DNA of 64,000 bases from Vairimorpha necatrix (Eukaryota). This document shows, one piece after another, positions 2,500 through 62,593 of the stretch. Numbering within the stretch: the first letter of the stretch is position 1; each line of letters opens with the position of its first letter. The notes beneath the pieces are model-generated. The model did no database searches. It saw only the letters and a list, made by a program, of their open reading frames with translations, and had not been told where the DNA came from. The stretch is taken from NCBI GenBank assembly GCA_036630325.1, contig CP142727.1:1-64000 (forward strand). The letters are read 5' to 3'. A program made the position numbers and the translations under genes.

Positions 2500-5400
2500 T
2501 GTTATACTTTTTTTTAATAGGGGGTTCAACCCCAAGATCCCCCTCCAGACGTGTAGTCTCACGTTACAAGCTTCTAATTTATAATTTTATAATCTTTTAG
2601 TTTATAATGTCGTTTCTTAATGTATCTTTAGCTATCAGTCCTTACAATATAAGAATCATTTTCGTACTTTTCCATTATTTTACCAACATTTGTGAATCTT
2701 CCTTTCATACTTTTTATCTATTTTCCCAAAATTTTATCTTGCGATTTTCACAGCCTGATCTACTTCAAATTTTTCTCTATGTTTTTGTTTAAACTTACTT
2801 GCATACACACCCTTTTAATTGTTTTCAATTAAGACTTCTTCTCCTTGGTCCTTACATGCTTCCATTGGTGTACATTTTATCGTTGTGTGTAGAGTGTTAT
2901 TATAGGTTCATACAGCTTGTTCTAGTTTTTCTTCTGGGTTTCCTTCTTTTTATTTGATCATTGATTCCCTTATTGTTCAAATACATCGTTCTATTCTTCA
3001 ATTACTCCTATGAGCTTCTAAACCTACTTTCCATTGACTAATTTCGTTTTCTATACACCAAGTTACAAAATTCTTACTAAAAATTCCTTATGTTTTCCGT
3101 AATATATTCATCTAGGTATCTATCTCAAATATCCATTTTATAAAGTTTTAGACTAATTTCACTATCATTATTTTCTATCTTTGCGTCACATATTCTTGTT
3201 CTAAGTAGTCCATCCCAAATAGCACGTATCTTTCTATTTGCCAAATATCCAATACGTTAGAAAGTTTTTTAAATTTCTTAAATATTGTTACTTAATTGCT
3301 ACCTCCCATCGTTTTTCTATTATTAATGCTACATACTTCACAATTTTTTAGTGTTGTGGTTATCTGGTACTTCATACCGGACCAGTACCATCTTTGTTTA
3401 ATCTTATAATGTGTTCCCTTAACTCCTCGATCTATTTAATTCCTCATGAACTCTACGAATTTCTGTCTCTTGTTAGTTCGTTGTGTAGTAGTTTTTTAAT
3501 TTCTCCTGTTGAGAACTTCCATTAGTTTTTGCCTTCTCTTTTAGCTATGCGCTTGTTTTCTTTCCCTTTCATCTGTTTTGGGGCCGTTTCTCTCTTTAGC
3601 GATTTTCAATTTCTTCGTTATTTTCAAATTGTCTACTAAGAGCATCCACATACGTCATCAATTCTCCTTTTACTTATTTAATAGTAAAATCGAACTCTTG
3701 TATATATTCTATCCATCTCTTAATTATAAAATTATTGAAAAACGGGTTGTTTCAAATCTCGGCCAGCCCTTTATGATTTGTCATTTATTAAAATTTGCTT
3801 CGTCCAAAACTGACTCAAATTTCTTTATTCCGAATAACACTGCCTTATCTCTTTTTCACTAATCGTATACCTTTTTTAGGTTGGTGTTATCATTTTTGGT
3901 GCCCAATGTATCGGATTCCACCTTTCTTCTTTGTCTTCTTGCAGAAGTATGGCTCAAATTCCCGTATCGCTTGCATCCGTTCTTACTCTAAATATTTTTT
4001 ACTATCTTCTATTTTTAATTTTAACACATTCTTCAAACCCTCTTTGATATCCATAAAAGCTCTTTCCAAATCTTCGGACTATCCCCACTTAACATCTTTT
4101 TTAGTGCTTCTGTAAGACGTGCTGTCCGTTAAGCATAATTTTGAATAAAATCTCTAAACCAGCCTGCCCGTCCCTCAAATCTTCTAAGATCTTTTATGTT
4201 GTTAGGCCATCTGTATTCTTATGTCTTTTGCTTTTTAATTTTGTTAGGTGTAATGTCTTCTCCGTTAATTGATACTCCAAGTAGTTTTACTTCTCCTTTA
4301 TGTTTTATTTTTTTTTAGGTTTCTTTTAATCCACATTTGTTAAATTTTCGAATTACTTGTTTTAAAAAATTTTCGTGTATATTACTATCTCTTGCATGAA
4401 ATATAATAACATCCATGTACACCTCAACACTCTTGCCTCTAAACTTATCTAAAACTCCGTTCATCACTCTTTGCATAATATGGGGAGCATTTTTAAATCC
4501 CATTACCATGCTATTCCATTCGTAAACTCGAACATTTATCTCAAAGCTTTCTTATGTTTTTGAGCTTTCTCAATTTTATATGATAGAATCCTTCCTAGAG
4601 GTCTATAACTGTAAATACTTTAAAACTTTGCTTTGCCCTAATAATGTCTCTAATTAATGGCAATTCATACGGATCCTTTTTAACCAGTTCATTTAAAGCC
4701 ATCAAATGGCTTCTCAATTGTACTTCACCATTTGGTTTTTCTATGGGCTTTATTAGGCTTCTCCATTCGCTCTTTGTCCTTCTGATAATACCTCTACTTT
4801 CTAATAAATAAATATACTTTTCTAACTTTTCTCGAATTATAAGAAATATTTTGTCTTTTTATATCTACTTTCACTTCTTGTTTTGTTTTGATAGAACATT
4901 TCCCCCCTGTTAAGTATTTATTTACTCTTCGTCTTTTCCTATTACCTCAGGAAATTTTCCTTCTAATTCTTAATATTTATTAATATTTTTTCTTCTTGTA
5001 TCTTGGTTTGTATTTTTTACATAAAAACTGTTTCTTGAGTTCTCTCTCTCTACCTCCACTGTTAGTCTTAATTTAAAATCATTTCCTTTTAATATTTTCA
5101 TTTTACTATTATCATGAATGCCAAAATATTTAACACTTTTATTTTCATTATTCTCTTCCTGTCTTCCTTTACGCTCCATACAACCTCTAGCTATATGTAT
5201 AATACTTCAACATATAAAACAATGTTTTTCTTCTCGTCATTGATATTAAAAGTTTCTTCCTGGCACTGCTACAGTCCTGGTAATTTATCGTTTAATCTTC
5301 TTTTTAATTTTTCTTTCATAATCTCTACCATATCTGAAAGTTCTCTACTCCTTATTTTTTCCTTGTTATGATTCTCTTCTTGTTTACAACCAATTTATCA

Positions 5401-5650
5401 ATAATATCATTCCAATTTATCATACTAATTAAAGTTTTATCATTAATAAAATTTTGAATTTCAGTACTTACTTGTTGCGCCTTTTCGTTGTCACTTCATT
5501 TACATTTTTCTGCATTATGATGATCGTCTCACTCTCTGAGCTTTTTTTAGGAATTTATTGTTCTCTTAAACACGGCTCTCACTTGTTACCCTTTTAGTAT
5601 TTTGTGTTCGCCATGTTATAATTTATTTAATAGGAGGTTCAACTTAAACA
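2500..5650 (-). mobile_element. Degenerate Ty3/gypsy LTR retrotransposon with 37-38 bp LTRs, next to the telomere
   Basis: Diverged direct repeats at 2500-2537 and 5614-5650. PBS-like TGGCGAAC follows the 5' LTR on the minus strand; PPT CGTCTGGAGGGGGA precedes the 3' LTR. Broken gag knuckle CFIC*SIIHIARGC (~5180-5225), RT MVMGFKNAP...VYMDV (4315-4509), RNase H and integrase remnants. Flanks TTATA/TTTTA fit a 5-bp TSD with one mismatch. Confidence 0.88.
4315..4509 (-). pseudogene. Reverse transcriptase fragment of the gypsy element
   Basis: MVMGFKNAPHIMQRVM...VEVYMDVII aligns by eye with MVMGYKNSPQILQRIM...VEVYMDDIV of the 41-44 kb element; the catalytic YMDD has become YMDV. Confidence 0.9.
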
Positions 5651-29712: not shown

Positions 29713-30639
29713 TCAAATTATATTTAATTCGTTTTTATTTAATGTAGGGTGTGATATTATTTTGATTTTAAATAAATTCTTGACATATTCCAATATTTTC
29801 TTATTTATCCCTACTTCGAGTTGCCTTGTCTTTTCACTTATTTCTATCATCCTTGTTTCGAATTCAGGAAAAAAAGACTGCACTTCCCTTAAAAGCTCAT
29901 TTGTCACTTTACCATTCTTAAAATATGCCTTGGCTACATTAGAATTTTTTCCTGCCAATTTACAAGTAAAAAAGGTCAATTTTTTAGATTCCAGATCATT
30001 TCCGGTCTTTTTACTTATTTCTGGGAAGAAATTAAGATAATCGTCTTGCATTTGGAATTTTATTCCTAATAATCTACAATATTCATATAAATTATTTGGT
30101 TCATCTTGGCCAGTGTACGCATACCCTACAGATAAAGGGAAATAAAAAGTGTACCAAGATGTTTTATATTCTGCTATTGCATCATACAAGTCTAATTTAT
30201 ATTCCTCAATTGTATTCTTCATACAATCAAGTGTTTGGCCTAGGCATGTATTAAGTACACACTTATAGTATTGTGCTCTAAAATCAGAGCTAGTTTTATT
30301 TTTGATATTTTTTATAATTCTACCTAGACCCGTCACAAAATACTGTGCATATCTTAAGGACACCAAGCCTTTTTTCTTATAGTAACATTCCACTCCTCTT
30401 CTTTGGTCTGCTTCATCCATAACATCATCAACTACAACAAGTACACTTTGTAGTAATTCAAAAATATTCCCTAGCTTTACAGATTCGTCGGAAGTACTAT
30501 TTTGAAGAATTTTAAATAATTCAGTTCTGTACGCCTTCCCCCCTGTAGTATTATAAGTAATAAAAGATGATATTTTATGAGTATTCTGATAATTACTGTT
30601 TTTTATGAAATCGTTGAGAATTCTATCAATATTTGACAT
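29713..30639 (-). CDS. ERG20: Farnesyl diphosphate synthase (trans-isoprenyl diphosphate synthase)
   Basis: GGKAYR, first Asp-rich motif DDVMD...RRG, GQTLD, YKTSWYTF, second motif FQMQDDYLN, KTGNDLESKKLT; CCC motif before the ATG. Confidence 0.93.
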   Translation of the reverse strand: MSNIDRILNDFIKNSNYQNTHKISSFITYNTTGGKAYRTELFKILQNSTSDESVKLGNIFELLQSVLVVVDDVMDEADQRRGVECYYKKKGLVSLRYAQYFVTGLGRIIKNIKNKTSSDFRAQYYKCVLNTCLGQTLDCMKNTIEEYKLDLYDAIAEYKTSWYTFYFPLSVGYAYTGQDEPNNLYEYCRLLGIKFQMQDDYLNFFPEISKKTGNDLESKKLTFFTCKLAGKNSNVAKAYFKNGKVTNELLREVQSFFPEFETRMIEISEKTRQLEVGINKKILEYVKNLFKIKIISHPTLNKNELNII

Positions 30640-40600: not shown

Positions 40601-41296
40601 CTCAAGGTATTTATTTTGAAAACAAAAACTTCAGTTATTGTTGCTGTTACATTATTTTTAATATTTTTGTTGTGTTTCTATATTATGATACATCTTTAAT
40701 GCAATTTTTTTGATGTACATTTATTTTGTTTTTTACAAATAAAATTATCATCATCACCTATGAAAGAATTTTTAAAATTTTTTCCTTCTCTTTTTCCTGT
40801 TTGAAAATTTCTAATCTACATACTAAGATCTTATTTTGGAAAAATAATAATCGGGATATAGATTTTATAGTCTTTTCTTGAAATTATAAGTGTGTTTTCT
40901 ATATATATATTGTAAAACTTTTTCATTCTAATTATATTTTTATACTACTTTGATCCAAAATATCGTCAATATCGTTTTTTAAATTTTTATTTACTCTTCA
41001 AAAAAAAAGAAAAAAAATGTTTATAATTCAAAAATTCTCAACGAAGGACAATAATAATTGTATAGAAAGTTTATAAGCACGATTAATTGTGTTTTGAAAA
41101 TAATTTTGGCCCCATATTCAGATCATATGCTACTTAAATGGATTTTTAAAAGGCGAACTTTTTTTATATTCTCTCTTGAGAGAATGAAATTAAAAAAAAA
41201 TAAAGAAGAGTAACAAACTACAAACAAAATATATCGATCCCGCTTTCTAAAAGGGACAAGCGCACGCTTGTAGTTTACAATATTAAAAATATACAA

Positions 41297-44200
41297 TGTT
41301 ATATTCAGAATAATATTAAACCCCAATTATGTTAAGCACTTATATGGGGGCGATACCTAAAGAAGAGTTCACAAGAGAGGACTGTGGCCAAGTGGTCAGA
41401 AAGATGTTACAGGAGTTAGAGCGTATATTGTATGAATTGGATTTGAGAGATGTAGATAGAGTGAAATGGAAGAGTGAGCTGTTCAAGTTGGCTTCGATGG
41501 ATTTAAAAGATTTTATTGTGAGAAATATCAAAAAGGAAGAAAATATTGAAGGAATAAGGAAGAAGCTATTGTTAAGGATTAAGGAAGTAGAGGAAAAAGA
41601 AAAGATATATGAGGAAATGGGAAAAATTATTTCTAGGACTATAAATGAAGAAATTAGTAGAGAACAACCAAGACAAAAATCGAGAGTACCGAGATGCTTC
41701 TATTGTGATAGACAAGGGCATAGGGTGTTTGAATGCAGACTGAAGATTAATAGAGATAATTATTATAAAAAGAATAACAAGGATAACAGTTGCAAAATGG
41801 AAGTAGGTAGTGAATCAGAGTCAAGTCAGGAGCGAGATTTTAGAAGATCAAAAAGAGGACTTAGAGTCAAATTTGAGAAAAATCAAAAAGAATATGCCGT
41901 TAAAGAGGAGAGTAAGAGAATCAGATTAAATTTAGATAAGTATGCTAAGAGTTTTGGAGAGGTTTTTAAGTTAGGAAAAGAGGAGATAAAATATTGTAAA
42001 CTGGAAAAATGTAAAATTAATACTGAAGCGGGTATGAAGGTATTTAAAAAGGGACAAATGGTTCCGCAGGCGTTGATAAAAGATACAGAGCTACATCTAA
42101 AAGATTTATTAAAAAGGAAAGTGATAAGAGAGTCAAATTCAAGTTGGAGGAATCCTATAAGGTCAATCAGAAAGCCAAATGGTGAGATAAGACTGGTTAG
42201 TAATTTGATGGCATTGAACGATATTGTAGAAAAGGACGAGTATAGATTGTCTAACATAAGAGATGTTGTAAGAGCTACACAAGGTGCAAAATATATGACG
42301 GGTTTCGACTTAAAAGAGGCCTTCTATAGTATTGAGATAGAGGAGGAGGATAAACATAAGACGGCGTTTGATTTTAATGGCAAGGTTTATGAATGGAACT
42401 CTATGGTTATGGGATATAAGAATAGCCCGCAGATATTGCAGAGAATTATGGATAGGATTTTTAGAGATATGAAAGGCAAAGGAGTAGAGGTGTATATGGA
42501 CGATATTGTGTTGTACAGCCGAACGATAGGAGAACACGAGCAATTAGTGAAAAGGGTATTAAATAGACTGAAGGAAAACAATTTGAAGCTGAATGCAAAT
42601 AAAGTTCAGTTTTGTCAACGGGAAGTTAAATTATTGGGAGTCACTTTAAATGGAGAAGATATAATACCGTCAGAGATAAAGAAAAATGAAGCCCTAGAGT
42701 TTCCGATACCAACATGCGTGTCAGATGTAAGAAGATTTTTAGGAATGACGGGTTGGTTCAGAGATTTTATTAAGAATTACGCTGGATTGACAGTTAGGTT
42801 GACAGATAGTTTAAAAGGGAAGAATGATAATTGGAAGTGGACGGATGATATGAAAAACGAGTTTAATAATTTAAAAGAAGTATTTAAAGGCCTAGGAAAG
42901 CTGCAAATAGCAGACTATGATAAAGAATTTTTGTTGAGGACTGACGCTAGTAATGTAGGCATGGGCGCAGTACTGTTACAGAAAAATAATCAAGGAGAAT
43001 GGGTGCCGGTACAGTGGGCGTCTAAGAAGTTTACCGTTACGGAAGTTAATTATGGTATATCAGAAAAAGAAATGTACGCAGTTTTTTGGGGCGTTAAAAA
43101 GTTTGAATATGAATTAAGAGGTAAGAAATTTAGAATAGAAACTGATCATAAAACGTTGGGCGAAATAAGAAACAAGCCCGACTTTAAGAATGCTAGAATT
43201 AATAGATGGGCCGAGAAGATTCAGGAATTTGATTTCGTGATAGAATATAGAACTCCAGAAAATATGGTCGTAGCCGATGCGCTAAGTAGGATATATACAA
43301 AAGAAAAAGATGCAAAGAAAAAGAGAAATGAAACACGCCGTGATAGACAAAAAGAAGGGAAAAGAAATAAGCATGTAAAAATTGTAGAAGGCAAAGAATA
43401 CTGGGTATTTGATAGTGGTAGAGAAGGCGAGATGCCTTTGGAACAAGACAGAGAGAGATTAATAATGGATTGTCATTTAAATTTGAGCCACAGAAGCAGA
43501 ACAACGGTATATTATGAGTTGAGGAAACAGTATTATTGGCCAGGAATTAAGGATCAGATCGAAAAGGTCCTTAAGAATTGCGAGACTTGTCAGATTTTTA
43601 ATAAAAAAACGAGTGGCGGTACTGATTTAGTGAACACGACAAGATATTTAGAGAAGGTTGGCTTAGATTTAATAGAATTTAGGGAAGAGAAAGCGTTTAT
43701 TGTTTGAGCAGTTAATTACTTTACAAGGAGATTATGGGAGAGTATTGAAGAGCAAGCACGCATTTGGAATTGCCGAATTTATTAAGGATTTGTGTAAACA
43801 AGGCAGAAAACCAGAGGAAATTATTACGGATAATGGTAAAGAGTTTTGCAACGAAAAAGTTACCGAGCTATGTAGAAATTTGGATATTAGCTATAGAAAG
43901 GTCAGCGTTGAGTCGCACAGAAGTAATGGAAGAGTAGAAAAAGTTATTAGAACTGCAAGAGATAGTATTTTAAAGAGCCAAAAAGAAAAATTCGAGAACA
44001 AGGTTTATGAAGCTATTGAGAAATATAATTTAAGTTGTCATGCTGGTATTAAGTGCACGCCAGTAGAAGCTTTAACCGATTATACAGGAAATGTTAGTAT
44101 GGAGAATAGTCCAGAGGGAAAGTATGCGCAACAGTTTAAAAGTTGGTTTAGAGAAAAGTTCAAAAGGAGCCAGATAGTTAGGGTTGCCAAGAATGAGAAT

Positions 44201-44436
44201 TTAAAGGGATGTAGTAAGTATAGTAAGGGTCGATTTTTAGACATGGGAAGAGTGATTGAGCTATGTTTAGGGGATTCATATATAGTGAGATTAGAGAATG
44301 GAAGGTTGGTGAAAAAAAGGCATTATGATCTTAAGGGTGTAGGGGATTTAAAGTATGTTGAAGGAGACTAACCGTCTGGAGGGGGGATGTTATAATCAGT
44401 AATAATATTAAACCCCAATTATGTTAAGCACTTATA
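41297..44436 (+). mobile_element. Near-complete compact Ty3/gypsy LTR retrotransposon (3140 bp) with 48/49-bp LTRs
   Basis: LTRs at 41297-41344 and 44388-44436 differ by one substitution and one indel. Exact TSD TACAA at 41292-41296 and 44437-44441. PBS-like TGGGGGCG at 41345; PPT GGAGGGGGGA ending 44387. Domain order Gag-RT-RH-IN. Confidence 0.96.
41329..44371 (+). pseudogene. Gag-Pol polyprotein, disrupted in the integrase
   Basis: CFYCDRQGHRVFEC knuckle, RT (FDLKEAFY, YMDD), RNase H (TDAS, EKEMYA, TDHK, ADALSR), integrase HHCC and TDNGKEF. In-frame TGA at 43705-43707 (AFIV*AVNYFTRRLW), then a frameshift near 43738 into ORF 43700-44371. Confidence 0.93.
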
Positions 44437-45364
44437 TACAATACAAAAACAAATATTTGATTTTGCAAAATAACATTTTTTAGTTTGTACAGGTGTATTG
44501 TTAAACCGATTGAAAATTCGAACTAAAGCTTATTTAAACTTCATCTTGTATAATTAATTCATTTATTCTATAAATAGATCTCTATAACACAATATATACA
44601 CCCTTTTGTTTTAAAAGTCTTATGTAGTCTTAAAAATAATGGTTTGTCGGTTTTAAAGCTTACCTAAATACCATAAAACGAAACTTTATATAAATTTTGT
44701 TCTTTTATTACTCTGTCAAGAATCCTGAAATAAAGAGTGATGTATTTTTTTTCTATTCAATTGATTTGAAATCTTAAGCCCTACTTAGCATGTTTATATT
44801 AATATAACCCATGTTAAAAAATCTTATATTTACTTATAACGTGTCAAATATGAAATAAAAATTATGAATAATCTAAAGTTTTAATCTTACAGAATACTAT
44901 TTGCTTTTTTCATATATATGGCCAATATTTGAAATTTATTATTAAATAATTTTTATTTATTTAGTGGGCCTCGTAAAGCTCGATCATATTCTTTTAACTA
45001 ATTTAATGAGTTCCGTTTAATAAACAAATTATATGAAGAACGATTAGACATATTATAATTAAGAGTCTAACAAAAAAAGAACTCTCACTGAATAAAGACA
45101 TAATTTAATAACAAGGATTTTAGATTTATGTTATTGATATTATGCATTTATGACTAGAAAGACAACGATTATTATAAACAAAACATAATCCTAATCAATT
45201 TAGCTTATTTTCAAATAATATTATGATCAAAAATGTAAAGTTGTTTAAAGTTAGACCAGTCAAAAATTTACAACTTATGCCTGTTTGATGTTTTTGTATT
45301 CTTCCTTATATTTAATTAACCTTTTTGTTGCTTACTTAAAAAATCGAAGTTTTTTGATTATTAA

Positions 45365-46114
45365 TGTTGAGAATATAGATTTAATAAATTTAACCCTTAA
45401 CTTACAATTGTCTTTAACATGGTGGAGAATAAAATTATTGAACCCAAACAAAAACAAAAGAAGAGGTCGTAAGTTCCGTCGAAGCATGAGACGTAAAAAA
45501 AAATGCAGTCTAGGTTAGAATGGGGATGGTTGGTTGTCTAACAGAAGAGAAGGTGATGGCTTGCATCAGTCGAGGGACCCGGATAGGTGAAGACGTAAAG
45601 TAGCTATAAAGAGCTATGGAGAAACAGTATTGGTTTTTTTTTGATTCGGCATAAGAGTTGTCGAGATTGAGTGCAGTGGTAATCCCACTATTCACATTAA
45701 AGCTATCGTGGCAAGATAGTTGAACCAATAGTGTTCAAAATCCAGAGAGATTTAAAAAGATAAGAAAATCAAAAAGAAACTGTGTTATAGTCGAAGAATG
45801 AGATAGACGGAAAAAATTCGATTCCATTGTTGGGAAGACATGTGTAAAGAATAATCACATGCCCATAGACTACATGTATTAAAACAGGGAAAGAAAGTAC
45901 CTCGAAGACCAATACTAGAAAGGATTGTAAGACGCGGTAGAGTAAGGCGCAGCCCATGGTCAGTTAACATAAAAATGCACTTTTATTTTGAGAGCCCAGT
46001 AGTAGGCGTAGGAAGTAGTAAAGATAATTTCATCGCTAATTCTGAATTTAGCGCGGGGATGTTGAGAATATAGATTTAATAAATTTAACCCTTAACTTAC
46101 AATTGTCTTTAACA
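45365..46114 (+). mobile_element. 750-bp non-autonomous LTR element (TRIM-like) with identical 55-bp LTRs
   Basis: TGTTGAG...TTTAACA at 45365-45419 and 46060-46114. Exact TSD ATTAA at 45360-45364 and 46115-46119. PBS-like TGGTGGAGAAT at 45420; GCGGGGA tract before the 3' LTR; no long ORF. Confidence 0.93.
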
Positions 46115-46337
46115 ATTAAAGTAGAAATTATGTCACATATACACAGAATATCAAGTTTTATATTGTAAATAGCTGAATTCATGTTGGTTCAACCACCAGA
46201 AAATTATGATTGAATATATTTAATACATTTTTTTATTCGTTTTTGTGATTATAGATCTTTAATTTAATTTTTATGTGTTAAAAAAAATCAAAAATTGCTT
46301 TTTAATTCTCCGTTAAATTTTTTATTAAAAAAAATTA

Positions 46338-46350
46338 TTTTTTTTTACCC
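46338..46350 (+). promoter_or_regulatory. Microsporidian-type poly-T plus CCC motif before the ATG (example)
   Basis: The same CCC/GGG context precedes ATGs at 20792, 25192, 30639, 53518, 56744, 59502, 60181 and 60860. Confidence 0.75.
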
Positions 46351-47007
46351 ATGTACTTTTTATTAATTAGCTTCTATAGATGCTCTGTTATAAATGAAAC
46401 GCAAGATAATCTGATTATGAAGCAAAGTTTTGATTTTACTAGTAAAAATGGTGATGTTTATGCAAGTAAATTAATTCAATCTCTTAAAGCGATTCATTTA
46501 TGGAATAATAGCTTTAAATTACCTAATTCAAAAAATGAAAATGTTCTCAAATATAAAAAATTTGAATATAAAAAAGTATCGAAAAAAGCCAAAAAACTAA
46601 ATAATGGCATCAAAGATTTAAATGACTTATTAGATAAAAATTTCATAGAATTAAATACACAAGTACAGGTAATTTGTAACAAATTGTTTAAACATTTTGT
46701 TAAAACATTTAATTATAACAAAATTAGACATTTAGAAATATATGAAGAAGCTATGACATTGATCTCTCTGCATAAAATAAAAATTGAAAAAATCTATTCT
46801 ATATGTGAAAATATGGAATTTGATTCAAACTTAGCAGTGTTTGAAAATAATAATATCGCAGATAATTGGAAACATTTCGTGAAACAAGTAATAAACTACA
46901 ATATATTACAAAATTTTAAAGTAGTTATAAATGGCTTAGAACATATTAAAAATAAAATTAACAGAAATTATAAAGAACAGTTAAATGTGTTGGAGCATCG
47001 AAATTGA
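46351..47007 (+). CDS. Hypothetical, probably secreted protein (218 aa), paralog of 53518-54168
   Basis: Poly-T-ACCC-ATG context; short hydrophobic N-terminus MYFLLISFYRCS; shares LISLHKIKIEKIY, MEFDSNL and GLEHIKN with the paralog. Confidence 0.9.
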   Translation: MYFLLISFYRCSVINETQDNLIMKQSFDFTSKNGDVYASKLIQSLKAIHLWNNSFKLPNSKNENVLKYKKFEYKKVSKKAKKLNNGIKDLNDLLDKNFIELNTQVQVICNKLFKHFVKTFNYNKIRHLEIYEEAMTLISLHKIKIEKIYSICENMEFDSNLAVFENNNIADNWKHFVKQVINYNILQNFKVVINGLEHIKNKINRNYKEQLNVLEHRN

Positions 47008-53000: not shown

Positions 53001-53517
53001 TTTTTTTGATTAAAATTAAAAATTTGTTTTAATATCATTTATTATATCACAATATTTCTAAAACCGATTGCACCGAACAACTAAAAACAATTATAATTGA
53101 AATCAATTTAACTAATTTTACAGTTATATTACATTAAAATTGTAAAAATAAAGAAATTTTTTACTTACAACTTTCATTATTCAATAAACAAATAGTATAT
53201 TGATCTGTTCACGTCAAAATTTTGTGAATTTCTGCTAAAGATTGACGTGTCTTTTAATTATTAGAATAATGTTTTTATTCTTTAAAAAATCAAGATTCTG
53301 GCTACTTAAAAAAGATATACATATGTTGTAAAAAGCCAAAATATTTAACATATTGTAAAGATGATATATCTTAATTAAAATGCCAAAGAACTTAATAAAT
53401 AATTCTAAAATGTTACTTTTTAAAGTTCATAATTTAGTTTTTAAGCTCTTTTATTAAAAAACTACTTTTATAGAATTTTTGTTAAGCATTTAAAAAAAAA
53501 AATATTTTGATTTACCC

Positions 53518-54168
53518 ATGTACTTTTTATTAATTAGCTGCTTAAGATGTTCAGAACTAGAAAATATGCAAAGCAAAACAATTATCCAGAATAACTATGA
53601 CCTTACAAGAGGAGAAGATGCAAATATCAAAAATAATTTAATTCTTTCTTTTCATGCTATAACCATATGGAATAATAGTCTTGAGATTTTTAATACAGCT
53701 AAAAAAGATATCCTAAGGTTCAAAAATTTTGAATTCAAAAGATGGTCGAAAAAATCTAAGATCTTAGACATTAACGTCAGAGAATTAAATGCTTTATTAG
53801 ATGAAGATTTTATAAAGGATAATTCTAAAGTTGCAGCTATTAGCGTTAAATTATATAAACATTTTGATAAATCGATTCATCTTTATGATGTTAAGCATTT
53901 GAAAATGTATGAAAAAGCAATTAAACTGATTTCTTTACATAAAATAAAAATTGAAAAAATTTATAACATATGTAAAGATATGGAATTTGATTCGAATTTA
54001 AAGGTTTATAAAAACATTGATACTGCAAAAAATTGGAAAAATTTTGTGGAACAAGTCAAGAGATACAAAATATTACAAGATTTTGAAGTAGTTTTATATG
54101 GATTAGAACATATAAAAAATACAATCAACAAAAATGTTAAAGAATGTGCCGATGTGCTGGAGCATTAA
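53518..54168 (+). CDS. Hypothetical, probably secreted protein (216 aa), paralog of 46351-47007
   Basis: TTTACCC-ATG context; MYFLLISCLRCS N-terminus; colinear similarity to the 218-aa ORF. Confidence 0.9.
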   Translation: MYFLLISCLRCSELENMQSKTIIQNNYDLTRGEDANIKNNLILSFHAITIWNNSLEIFNTAKKDILRFKNFEFKRWSKKSKILDINVRELNALLDEDFIKDNSKVAAISVKLYKHFDKSIHLYDVKHLKMYEKAIKLISLHKIKIEKIYNICKDMEFDSNLKVYKNIDTAKNWKNFVEQVKRYKILQDFEVVLYGLEHIKNTINKNVKECADVLEH

Positions 54169-56743
54169 AGTTAATTAAAAATTTTAATTTAAGTATTTTT
54201 TTAAATAATGATCCTTTAAATCCTTTTACAAATTAATATATTTAAATAATCGATAATAAAACAACTACATATACAATTTACAAAATAATACAAATTTGTA
54301 GAAAAAATTATATAATTGCATAATTAAAAATTGATGTTTAAAAAAAATTATGCGAAAAAATCTGTTGTACATTTAACATACAACAAAATGCAAATTTGCA
54401 TAAATTATAAATCTAATTTTTTAATGTCTATAATTTCTATCAATGTTTTATGCAAATGTGTTTTTGTGATAAATTAAATATGAATACGGCAAAAAATAGA
54501 TTGCCAATATTAAAGTTAATTATTCACTAGGACATTATGTGATGTTAAAATACAAACGAGTTTCTAAAAACCTTCATTATGTATATAATTACTATTAAAA
54601 CTAAAAAATAATGCGTAAAAAATAAGTTATAAGTTTCTGAGTAAATTTATACATCATTTTAGATTATGTTTGACCAATACTAGCTAGATCATACAATATC
54701 ATCATTTTATATTCATGTTTCGGCAATTTTTAGATACATATTATGAAGTGTGATTACTTAGGTAAATATTTTTGTTAATTCAATCTCGTTGGTTTTTATC
54801 TAATGTAAAAAAAAGCGCAGAAATTTACAATTAAATACACTTCACAAAGTAAAAAACTCCGATACTGGATAAAGTTAAGTATCAAAGTTCCAGTCATAGA
54901 TTTACAAAGTCCGATAGAAAAAAATAAACAATAGATTGTTCGATAATTCTCAGCAAAGACGAGATTTTTTTTTTCGGCTTGTAGTTTATTTCTATGTTTT
55001 AATATACTCTACAATATTTTGATAATTAAATAAAAATGCATCCCGACTTGCAATTGTTATGTAATATTAGGAATAAATTTGATACTACATAATATTTTAA
55101 TAGACTTATATACAAGACATTCACGAATTAATATAATGTTTAACGTCGATTACATTTCTAACATCTTAAAAGATGCCAAATTAGATTAACATACTGTATT
55201 GTCTACTATTTTGCAGTTAAATTGAATTTTACACAATACGTTAAATCTTTAAAATCTTTTGAGAGAAAATACATTATAGAGATTTTTAAAGAAGGACGCT
55301 TTATGACAATTTTTAAAATTTATACAGTTTTAGCATCAAAAACAATCATATAGATGCCAATAATCAATTAGGAAAAGTGACTATTTACATTCTTGTTAAA
55401 TATAATTTTGTATGTCGAATTTTTAAAAGGCATTACAAATTATTGTTCGTTATACTTTGATTATTGACAATTAATGGTATTTATACAACAGACAATGTTG
55501 TTTAGTAAAAAATTGAATATCTTACTTATAAATTTTAATAATATAAAAAAATAATGACAATTCCCACGTAGAATATAATAAAACAGTATTGTTAGGTCAA
55601 TTATTATAAAACAAACAAATTTACCAATTCTCTTTGATAGTTGATTAATATGTCTACTATTTATAATCAAATATAATACTCTAAAAAGTTTCATCAATCA
55701 CACGATGCCCTTATGATGTAATGTATAAAGAACAATTTAAATTGCACCATGTTTAGATTATGTCGGTATGAGTATACTAATTGGTACAGTGGAAGTGACG
55801 AATAACATCCTTAACTTTCTGTAAGATTTATAAATCACTTCTTTAACATATTTATATTTGTTATCAAAAAGAACGCTACAGAAAAATGTTCTATTATATT
55901 TATTGATTTATATACCTTCTAATGTGGTTTTTTATTACTATATTGTGTAGAAATTAATTACATATTTAAAATTTATATTTTTTACATAAGTATGCTTTTA
56001 TAGATGTTTGAAATACATAAAAATTACTTTTAAAAAAATTCTAGATTTGTTAAAATATCAAGTTTTCAAATTACTTAATATATGTCATAATGTGGTCGAT
56101 TGTATTATAAGTTTAAAATTTTGCTTTTTTATACTACAAATTAAGATCTTTTCTATACTATAATATACGAATTTTAGACTATTTTTTTGTGATTGTATTA
56201 ATAGTCATACTAAGAAATTTTCATTGACGTCATATACCGTAAAAATAAGCTGCTCCTGCCTTTTTTAATAAAAAAATGCAATAAGCAATATGAATAATAC
56301 CTAGTCATATTGGGCCTATACTTGACATATACTAATATAATACATAAGGTGTACTATTATTCAATTATGACATGTTTTTTATATAGCGTCAAATTAACTA
56401 AACATTTAAATATAAGATGTTATAAACTTGTATATTAAAAATGTTCTTAGTAAAAATTTTTATATTTGCAATTTGACATCTTTCATTAAATAATGTTTTT
56501 TTATGAATTAAGAAAATAACATTGCAGCCTTAGATCACTGAAATTTTATCTTTACATATAACTTAATTGTACCGATTGACATTTGACATATAACGTTAAA
56601 AGACAATATTTTTTTACATTTAATTTATGAATTAACTCTACTTATTTAATGTTATATTTTATATAATATTTAGTTTTTGTTTGTTTACAAATTACACTTA
56701 GTTTTCTAAATGTTAGTAAGTTTTTTTTTTTTCTCCCCTTAAA

Positions 56744-58015
56744 ATGCAAGACATTGAGTATTCTCTTAAATACACTCTAGACAGTGTTTTACTTAAGCTC
56801 GAAGATGTCAAAGATGTGTCTGTTCCCAATGAAATCATTTCTTTTAGAAAAAAGTTTGGCGATTTAAAAACTTTGAAACTCTACACTAAAGACGGTAAGA
56901 TCTTCCCGTTGTTCAATGTTCCATTGTCTAATGGAATAAAACACACAGTTGAGTATTGTGAAGTTGCTGTCGGCGAGTCTCTGTTTGTTACCAAAGAATA
57001 TTCCAGGACTCTTAACCCACCAGATAAATATTCAAGTTTTATTATTAATGAGAAGTCTGATCAATTTGATTTATTATTAAATGATGATAATATTAATATA
57101 AGAGATTTCAGTTTTATTATTAAAGATAGTTCTAGAGTTTTACCTTTATATTCTATTACTTTTGAATATGACGAGGAATTAGAGCGCAAATCTAAAGGAG
57201 TGATTGTTTGCGAGAGATGCCGATCTAAACAGTCGATTTCTTTTTGCCCGTCGGAGCGGGCGAATTTCTGCGAGCAATGCGACGAAGAAGTCCATTGCGA
57301 TGAATTCCATAAGAGACATGACAGGTATTATTTCAATCAAGGAGGTAAAAGAAGATTTATTTATTGTTGTATTCATTCTGATACACTTGTTGAGTATTTC
57401 TGTATGATTTGTATGATTCCCATTTGTACTAAATGTAAAATTAATGGTAATCATTCTGAATTACCCAATAGTTCTCATGGTTTAGTAGGTTATTTAGAAG
57501 TATGCGATATTTTAAAGAATGAAGTTAAAATGTCCAATGACCAGTTGAATCCCGTGTTAGAACATTTAGTTTCTACTATTGAAGATTTTAAGAATACTTG
57601 CTCAGATTTCCAAATTAATATAAAAGATATTAGACAGAAGATTGAGGATGAATATAAAGCGATAATGAATGAGATAGATTTATATGAGAATACTCAGTAT
57701 CAGAATATAAATGCGCATTATATTAAGAGTATTAGTAAATTGGAGAATTTAGAAAGAATGAAAAATTACGCGATTTCTTTAGAGCCTTCACTTTTAGTGA
57801 AGAATTTCAGGAGTGTAGTTCAACAAAGAAATGAACTTGATGTTACAAATGACATAAATTTCGTACCTAAGAAAGTTGAATTAAAAGGGAAATTGAGTTT
57901 AGGAGATCCAGTGAGTTTGACGCCTAGGACGACGCAGTCTCCTAGGATGGACAAGACGACGAAGATGTATGTTGAGACTCGAGGGAAAGTTTACAACAAA
58001 ACTGATAATTATTAA
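56744..58015 (+). CDS. B-box zinc finger plus coiled-coil protein
   Basis: CERC...FCPSERANFCEQCDEEVH...HKR (B-box type 1) and CCIH...YFCMICMIPICTKC...H (B-box type 2), then a helical region; CCCC motif before the ATG. Confidence 0.9.
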   Translation: MQDIEYSLKYTLDSVLLKLEDVKDVSVPNEIISFRKKFGDLKTLKLYTKDGKIFPLFNVPLSNGIKHTVEYCEVAVGESLFVTKEYSRTLNPPDKYSSFIINEKSDQFDLLLNDDNINIRDFSFIIKDSSRVLPLYSITFEYDEELERKSKGVIVCERCRSKQSISFCPSERANFCEQCDEEVHCDEFHKRHDRYYFNQGGKRRFIYCCIHSDTLVEYFCMICMIPICTKCKINGNHSELPNSSHGLVGYLEVCDILKNEVKMSNDQLNPVLEHLVSTIEDFKNTCSDFQINIKDIRQKIEDEYKAIMNEIDLYENTQYQNINAHYIKSISKLENLERMKNYAISLEPSLLVKNFRSVVQQRNELDVTNDINFVPKKVELKGKLSLGDPVSLTPRTTQSPRMDKTTKMYVETRGKVYNKTDNY

Positions 58016-61800: not shown

Positions 61801-62593
61801 ATGAAAGGGAGCATATTTGTGTATGATGATATAAATCACTTGATATGTTATACTAATGATATAAAATCAAGTATAACTATCATATTAGTAGGTGGATTAG
61901 ATCACTCTACCTTACACATATTCTCTATACAAAATGTTTTTAAGACTAATAATACCACAATTTAGGAGTCATCCTAATTTCGGTATATTTCCATTTGAAT
62001 ATGATTTAGAAGATCTTAATAAAGTCATGGTAGATTTAGAAGGACAGATCATTCTTATAGGGAATTCTACGGGGTGTCAAGTCATCATGACTTATATAAA
62101 TAGGCATATCAATAATAAGATAGTACTGTGTATACTACAGGGGTCAGTATCAGACACAGAATATTTTGAGAGTCAACGCCATAAATATAATTATAATGAA
62201 AAATTTAGATTTGAAGATGAAACTGGAACAATAATAGACAATGAAGTAGATAATAAAGATATAGAGAATATATTTAGATATGATGGTATAATATACATAC
62301 ATGAAAGATATGTAAGTTTATACAAGAGACATGGTATAGAAGATTTATTCTCTTCTTATTTAGAAGATGAACATTATAAAAACCTAAATAAAAATAATTA
62401 TAAACTCATCTTCGTCATTTCTGACAAAGATGAGTTTGTAGTAAAAAAGATAGACGACAAATTGAGACATGTCAAGAATTCAGAGATTATAAATTTCAGA
62501 GAAGGAGATCATTTCTTACATAATAAAGAGTCACAGAAGGAATTTATTAAATTAATCAAAAAGGAGATACATAAAATGAGAGTACATCAATAA
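61801..62593 (+). CDS. DUF1749-like alpha/beta hydrolase, frameshifted near 61900
   Basis: ATG 61801 gives MKGSIFVY...IILVGGL; the +1 frame continues ITLPYTYSLYKMF... with GNSTGCQ, ILQGSVSDTE, DLFSS, DEFV and GDH motifs. Confidence 0.78.

Follow-up and report, generated by a model that had tools for sequence, protein, structure and literature searches.

A recently mobile Ty3/gypsy-type retrotransposon lineage of Microsporidia without an aspartic protease

Analysis of the window (the whole stretch of 64,000 nucleotides under study) revealed a Ty3/gypsy-type LTR element of 3,140 bp on the plus strand (41297-44436) that carried no protease between its zinc knuckle and its reverse transcriptase (RT). 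A protease-less lineage had been proposed at this place in the initial annotation, and open copies, LTRs with target-site duplications (TSDs) and a clade of relatives showed that the lineage exists, has moved recently and predates this genome. The element was flanked by a perfect pair of 5-bp TSDs (TACAA/TACAA, 41292-41296 and 44437-44441) and bounded by a 48-bp 5′ LTR of the form TG...TA (41297-41344) and a 49-bp 3′ LTR (44388-44436), which differed by one substitution and one gap. Within the 5′ LTR lay a run of CCCC, followed by the first ATG of the frame (41329), and this CCC-then-ATG layout was repeated in five subfamilies. CCC was also found directly 5′ of the first ATG in two of the seven other long frames of the window, while most of the remaining ones had a short C or G run close to their first ATG; we take the pattern of the element and of these frames to fit the microsporidian start motif. 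The primer-binding site (41345-41357) lay within the coding frame and was complementary to the 3′ end of tRNA-Pro(AGG), taken from a gene of the same genome with CCA added, over 13 nt, shorter than the canonical 18. The polypurine tract (44377-44387) abutted the 3′ LTR. Across the protease-less families examined, the whole LTR measured 37-50 bp. LTRs of this size fall below the defaults of common LTR finders, so protease-less short-LTR families are probably under-annotated.

The frame encoded a shortened Gag with four predicted helices, the last of them 40 residues long (41377-41664), a CCHC zinc knuckle of the nucleocapsid (C-X2-C-X4-H-X4-C; 41695-41736, residues 123-136 of the ORF from ATG 41329), a charged linker at the usual protease position (41737-41931), RT (41932-42828; PF00078, E=1.9e-36; YMDD at 42493-42504), RNase H (42913-43230; PF17917, E=2e-32), and an integrase (IN) with an HHCC zinc domain, a DDE core and a C-terminal beta domain (43444-44371; PF17921, E=3e-14, and PF00665). 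The order of the Pfam domains (knuckle, RT, RNase H, integrase) was the gypsy order. The knuckle matched PF00098 at E=0.042, with stronger matches in relatives, and its profile matched retroviral nucleocapsid structures. The RT part of the structure model matched Ty3 RT (4ol8, E=1e-32), and the D/E/D/D catalytic positions of RNase H were invariant in 13 aligned rows. The integrase of the main window copy was broken by a premature stop (43705-43707) and a frameshift near 43738; in eight sister copies it was one open frame.

The knuckle was joined in frame to RT by a charged stretch without a D[ST]G motif, as the initial annotation had described. This linker comprised 65 residues up to the first RT helix, of which 48% were D, E, K or R and 20% hydrophobic, and no D[ST]G was found in it in any of the six frames. 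In L003, a sister copy of 98% identity, 81 residues separated the knuckle from the conserved EEIxxC strand; judging from Pfam model lengths, a retropepsin needs about 90-100 residues. HMM searches and structure prediction had been named as ways to reveal a hidden protease, and both agreed with its absence. At E<=1 over residues 1-238, Pfam returned zf-CCHC and one chance match (E=0.18), and no retropepsin between knuckle and RT. AlphaFold2, run on L003 with a 21-row alignment (mean pLDDT 75.6), gave linker residues 146-199 a pLDDT below 50 with no beta domain and no retropepsin fold, and the linker is thus predicted to be disordered. A PF05380 match on a relative (P0030) was considered as a linker feature and rejected, since it fell on the RNase H of that protein.

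A disordered, fast-evolving linker resembles a degradable spacer, and it might be cut by a protease of the host, such as separase, a Ddi1-like protein or another cellular enzyme, or be trimmed by the proteasome. This is improbable, since the linker contained no conserved recognition sequence, its identity between subfamilies was 24%, and its length varied from 45 to 191 aa. In addition, the PF09668 matches in the genome largely coincided with the places of PF13975 matches, and no stand-alone host retropepsin was singled out.

The sole in-frame D[ST]G of the whole element was located at 43411, within an FDSG sequence (43408-43419) that was predicted to form the turn of a beta-hairpin between RNase H and integrase (strands E689-693 and E699-702). 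The recurrence of W-x-F-D-S-G in this genome's subfamilies could point to a hidden protease in another part of the polyprotein, for example at this motif. However, the DSG position read DDG, DNG, DNN or DTG in relatives, RNase H was separated from the zinc site of the integrase by about 67 aa, the junction was modelled as a long helix plus a hairpin, and the other confident parts of the L003 model were all RT, RNase H or IN. The motif was therefore rejected as a protease site, and a cryptic protease is very unlikely.

The same absence was found throughout the relatives. The distance from the knuckle to the RT strand was 45-101 aa in 18 of the 19 knuckle-bearing clade rows, and the remaining row had 191 aa of low-complexity charged sequence in between. 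In one Pfam run, a retropepsin was detected in 0 of 17 clade proteins versus 12 of 13 other elements, the single miss among the latter being a protein cut short at its start; in a further run, it was detected in none of three additional clade proteins versus all eight protease-bearing controls, which brought the clade to 0 of 20. Pfam thus detects divergent proteases in the nearest relatives but none in the clade.

In each RT-RNase H tree, a single branch separated the protease-less rows from the others: 14 of 29 rows in the first (support 100/99), 20 of 47 in a larger tree (SH-aLRT 87) and 20 of 43 in the final one, where they formed one clade (97/93). This clade was nested among protease-bearing relatives of gypsy domain order, and its nearest branches were the protease-bearing P0031, P0036 and P0100. 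The sample was drawn from a clade-profile search (the best 150, limited to proteins of up to 1,400 aa, which excluded longer multi-RT gene models). The final tree was built without P0010, P0029 and P0085, whose N-terminus was too short, L038, which had a long branch, and P0004, P0006, P0009 and P0159-P0161, and P0133 carried a weaker protease label because it was short at the N-terminus. Since the trees were midpoint-drawn without named reference elements and sampled with a clade profile, they support, but do not prove, a single origin of the protease-less state. Clade members included proteins from Nematocida (P0024) and Enteropsectra (P0005) as well as contigs of 2.9-4.0 kb. The host appears to be a microsporidian, since the relatives with a name belonged to Vairimorpha necatrix, Enteropsectra breve and Nematocida sp. 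AWRm77; proteins of V. necatrix, which may be the window's own species, were not counted as an independent host. The grouping of 20 rows in one clade indicates that the protease-less state persisted across Nematocida, Enteropsectra and Vairimorpha-type hosts.

Among the protease-bearing elements, two had an altered catalytic motif in place of D-[ST]-G: D-Y-G in L067a (L067 1256-5095, with an open 1,280-aa frame and identical 160-bp LTRs) and D-P-G in P0031, which belongs to the sister group of the clade. Pfam still detected the protease domain in both. Judged by the motif, these proteases are possibly inactive, which would be a step toward loss. Three other protease-bearing elements, L066, L067b (L067 5318-8680) and L069, had LTRs of 57-87 bp and a primer site inside the frame, suggesting that the LTRs shrank before or apart from the loss of the protease.

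The absence of the protease was not a result of decay, and the family was recently mobile. Of 57 scored genome matches, taken from 1,384 candidates, 34 had the same spacing in a frame that ran for 1,000+ codons without a stop; all genome counts are lower bounds. These open copies belonged to at least four subfamilies, of 98, 57, 57 and 54% identity, and their matches extended over about 2.4 kb, like that of the window copy. The initial annotation had pointed to intact family copies as a place where a protease could come to light; the open copies carried none between knuckle and RT. Among the eight closest open copies, seven had identical LTR pairs and seven had perfect TSDs, mostly unlike one another, which indicates separate recent insertions. 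The 5′ junction of the window subfamily was present 20 times in the genome. Raw pN/pS among five subfamilies was 0.27 for RT, 0.21 for RNase H, 0.33 for IN, 0.60 for Gag and 0.84 for the linker, values of which only the order counts because synonymous sites were near saturation, and the pattern on RT, RNase H and IN appeared to be purifying.

Since many protease-bearing elements reside in the same genome, the family could in principle consist of ordinary non-autonomous deletion mutants, whose RNA is carried wholly by a helper and whose own enzymes are passengers. However, RT, RNase H and integrase had intact and invariant catalytic residues, the frames were open across branches of 43-70% identity, the three enzymes showed the apparently purifying pattern, and all members formed one old clade. 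The conserved enzymes thus seem to have largely refuted this reading already, and its remaining probability is minimal. Enzymes for copying and insertion that are kept under selection imply that the element uses its own.

A second, decayed element was located on the minus strand at 2500-5650, beside telomere repeats, and had LTRs of 37/38 bp. Its knuckle (5221-5180), charged linker and KFPEVIG (at about 4957) were confirmed on the minus strand in one frame with two stops, the layout that had been reported for it. The two elements had been presented as two copies, both integrated with TSDs. Both lacked the protease, but judged by their sequences they are different families, since the aa identity was 40-54% in tblastn pieces and the primer site of the second was of the tRNA-Arg type rather than tRNA-Pro. 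The TSD of the main copy was perfect (5/5), and that of the second (TAAAA/TATAA) was alike at four of five positions. Among 43 matches to the second family were 27 further near-full-length ones at 85-88%, nearly all of them near contig ends, and the flanks were alike in seven of eight retrieved loci, those with LTRs found (L046-L053). These matches are most simply explained by one old insertion that was copied with the subtelomere to most chromosome ends, and the second family therefore counts once. A decayed element with shared flanks at most chromosome ends also offers a marker for dating subtelomere exchange. The adjacent telomere array (1-2330) consisted of 5-base and 4-base units, irregularly mixed.

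Other features were seen in the window. A 750-bp element (45365-46114) had identical 55-bp LTRs, an ATTAA duplication, a polypurine tract and a tRNA-Ala-type primer site, as in the protease-bearing L066, L067b and L069; none of 29 polyproteins matched it, L074, L070 and L012 contained copies at 78-92%, and it is TRIM-like. A decayed gypsy fragment covering RNase H-integrase lay at about 21000-22720 on the plus strand, and a separate integrase-like frame at 19900-20470 on the minus strand. Two related genes (46306-47007 and 53494-54168), 7.2 kb apart and of 65-72% DNA identity in parts, had no Pfam match. Host genes encoded a polyprenyl synthetase (29713-30639), a B-box zinc-finger protein (56720-58015) and a DUF1749 hydrolase-like protein (61901-62593).

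The Gag of the clade was shortened as well, a feature that, like the 49-bp LTRs, had escaped the initial annotation. In the L003 model, its N-terminal part (pLDDT 81) formed helices 17-39, 44-54, 57-66 and 73-112, followed by the knuckle, giving a helical part of about 96 aa. Residues 24-83 gave a weak alignment (probability 8%, E=0.004) with the first half of Gag from protease-bearing relatives; when a local HMM of protease-bearing Gags was run against the clade proteins, the knuckle and coiled-coil bias dominated the result. Foldseek gave no match to the Gag model at E<=0.001 (the Arc C-lobe ranked 13th, E=2.8), and a second fold search found no capsid among the 50 matches listed, which were generic helical ones with a best Z of 6.7. 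ESM Atlas placed residues 1-140 with zinc-knuckle and Gag-like clusters at 0.89-0.94, matches probably driven by the knuckle and taken as a lead. The fold searches gave no capsid assignment; from the predicted helices and the weak alignment, Gag is probably a capsid remnant, one capsid lobe's worth. A second-lobe motif, a pattern written by the analyst from the alignments that marks the start of the second lobe in relatives, was present in 12 of 23 protease-bearing rows and in one of 21 protease-less rows, some rows on both sides being short at the N-terminus. The only protease-less row with the motif was the basal P0015, which suggests that the protease was lost first and that the second lobe was lost later in most branches.

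Taken together, the evidence leans to an uncleaved polyprotein over cleavage by a helper or a host protease. That the lineage descends from Ty3/gypsy, lost its protease once, long ago, and makes an uncleaved Gag-RT-RNase H-IN polyprotein is the reading we favour, at a little better than even chance. One mRNA starting inside the 49-bp LTR would yield one polyprotein of about 1,014 aa that is not cleaved. The short helical Gag, together with the knuckle, would bind tRNA-Pro and the RNA of the element itself, and may bring several chains together. Owing to the disordered linker, RT/RNase H could dimerise while tethered and copy the RNA, and the integrase, still attached, would insert the cDNA and thereby create a 5-bp duplication. 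A fixed 1:1 ratio of Gag to Pol and a single capsid lobe would make a small ribonucleoprotein likelier than a closed Ty3-like shell. In one report, a CA-RT-IN fusion of Ty3 rescued cDNA synthesis (PMC5371799). Against the uncleaved reading, titles cited in PMC6952103 report that Ty1 and Ty3 need processing in order to transpose. We propose more tentatively, and with less than even confidence, that the element is a self-sufficient 3.1-kb retroelement that works as an uncut ribonucleoprotein, without protease maturation or a closed capsid, and was kept in this form across much of Microsporidia.

The main competitor of the uncleaved reading is cleavage in trans, in which the element would itself supply the Gag remnant, RT, RNase H and IN and be cut by the retropepsin of a co-resident Ty3/gypsy element. 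A helper is available: the genome contained at least 146 PF13975 matches above the cut-off, and the co-resident protease-bearing families had open frames and LTRs of 98-100% identity. The linker is predicted to be exposed and disordered, and a half-conserved NK..[FY] stretch after the knuckle in many clade members could be a retained site, although the subfamily of the window copy, which spread recently, had no aromatic residue there. At the RNase H-IN junction, a cleavage-site-like motif was present in 10 of 22 protease-bearing rows versus 0 of 17 protease-less rows, and the three closest protease-bearing relatives likewise had none; on the knuckle side, such a motif was present in 11 of 24 versus 8 of 21 rows and did not separate the groups. 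The predicted helix and hairpin at the RNase H-IN junction also count against cleavage there. Moreover, the primer was tRNA-Pro, versus tRNA-Ala in the nearest protease-bearing families of the genome, and a one-lobe Gag would be unlikely to join a two-lobe lattice, the rarity of the second-lobe motif in the clade arguing against co-assembly with a helper's shell. Cleavage by a borrowed protease is thus possible but rather unlikely.

Both the protease and the capsid are counted among the core components of every Ortervirales-type element, and Ty1 and Ty3 are held to depend on processing. With a clade that is old and mobile but has no protease, it becomes testable whether cleavage is needed for reverse transcription and integration as such, or only for freeing enzymes in a crowded shell. 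If the polyprotein is uncut, it would be a natural single-chain RT-integrase; if the protease is borrowed, the clade would represent an unusually old, enzyme-only dependence between retrotransposons. The clade also shows that the compaction of the parasite genome extends to the parasite's own mobile elements.

Compared with known systems, the element resembled Ty3/gypsy (Metaviridae; type element Ty3 of S. cerevisiae) in its LTRs, tRNA primer site, polypurine tract, 5-bp TSD, knuckle, RT-RNase H-IN order and RT model. Of the Metaviridae features (PMC7879559), the two direct LTRs, primer site, polypurine tract, nucleocapsid domain and RT-RNase H-integrase order with intact catalytic residues were present, whereas the protease in pol and the canonical LTR size were missing (48-49 bp for the whole LTR here, versus 200-1200 nt for U3 and 75-250 nt for U5 according to ICTV). 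Unlike in Ty3/gypsy, the start codon was in the LTR and the primer site inside the frame, and four Gag helices were predicted, versus two four-helix capsid lobes described for Ty3 in the available part of PMC6525542. Lacking the protease and the LTR size, the element was filed as a variant and not as a canonical member of Metaviridae.

DIRS-like elements and hepadnaviruses, the latter without an integrase, are RT-RNase H elements that work without an aspartic protease of their own. DIRS-like elements integrate by a tyrosine recombinase (PMC12440569, accessible part), whereas the clade has retained LTRs and, as the presence of PF00665 and PF17921 shows, an integrase of the DDE type. TRIM and LARD elements are non-autonomous LTR derivatives without an intact RT or integrase, unlike the open frames of 1,000+ codons described above. 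DGLT-A of Dictyostelium and Troyka are likewise LTR elements with a single Gag-Pol ORF. A figure legend in the available part of PMC5006619 lists DGLT-A without a protease; it was rejected as a precedent because its 1,437-aa protein has a protease at aa 231-425 (PMC6101501, accessible part), and Troyka was rejected because it encodes a retropepsin.

The element was like the microsporidian Ty3/gypsy groups 1-3 of Parisot et al. 2014 (PMC4202319, seen in part) in its host group and single polyprotein ORF; these groups include the Nbr elements of Nosema bombycis, and the word "protease" was absent from the available main text and supplementary file 2. Set beside these groups by description only, the clade could easily belong to one of them. 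In the literature covered, no description of a protease-less gypsy clade was found; Xu et al. 2006, reportedly a paper on the Nbr elements, Repbase and GyDB were outside this scope and may contain members. The available part of PMC10759460 counts about 109 retroelements and does not contain "gag" or "aspartic", and PMC2836005, PMC13149256 and PMC7313128 had nothing bearing on protease-less gypsy elements. The closest likeness was to the protease-bearing P0031, P0036, P0100, L066, L067b and L069, which have a compact single ORF as well, with short LTRs and a primer site in the frame in the last three; unlike the present element, all six keep the retropepsin, and P0031, L066, L067b and L069 also keep the second-lobe motif.
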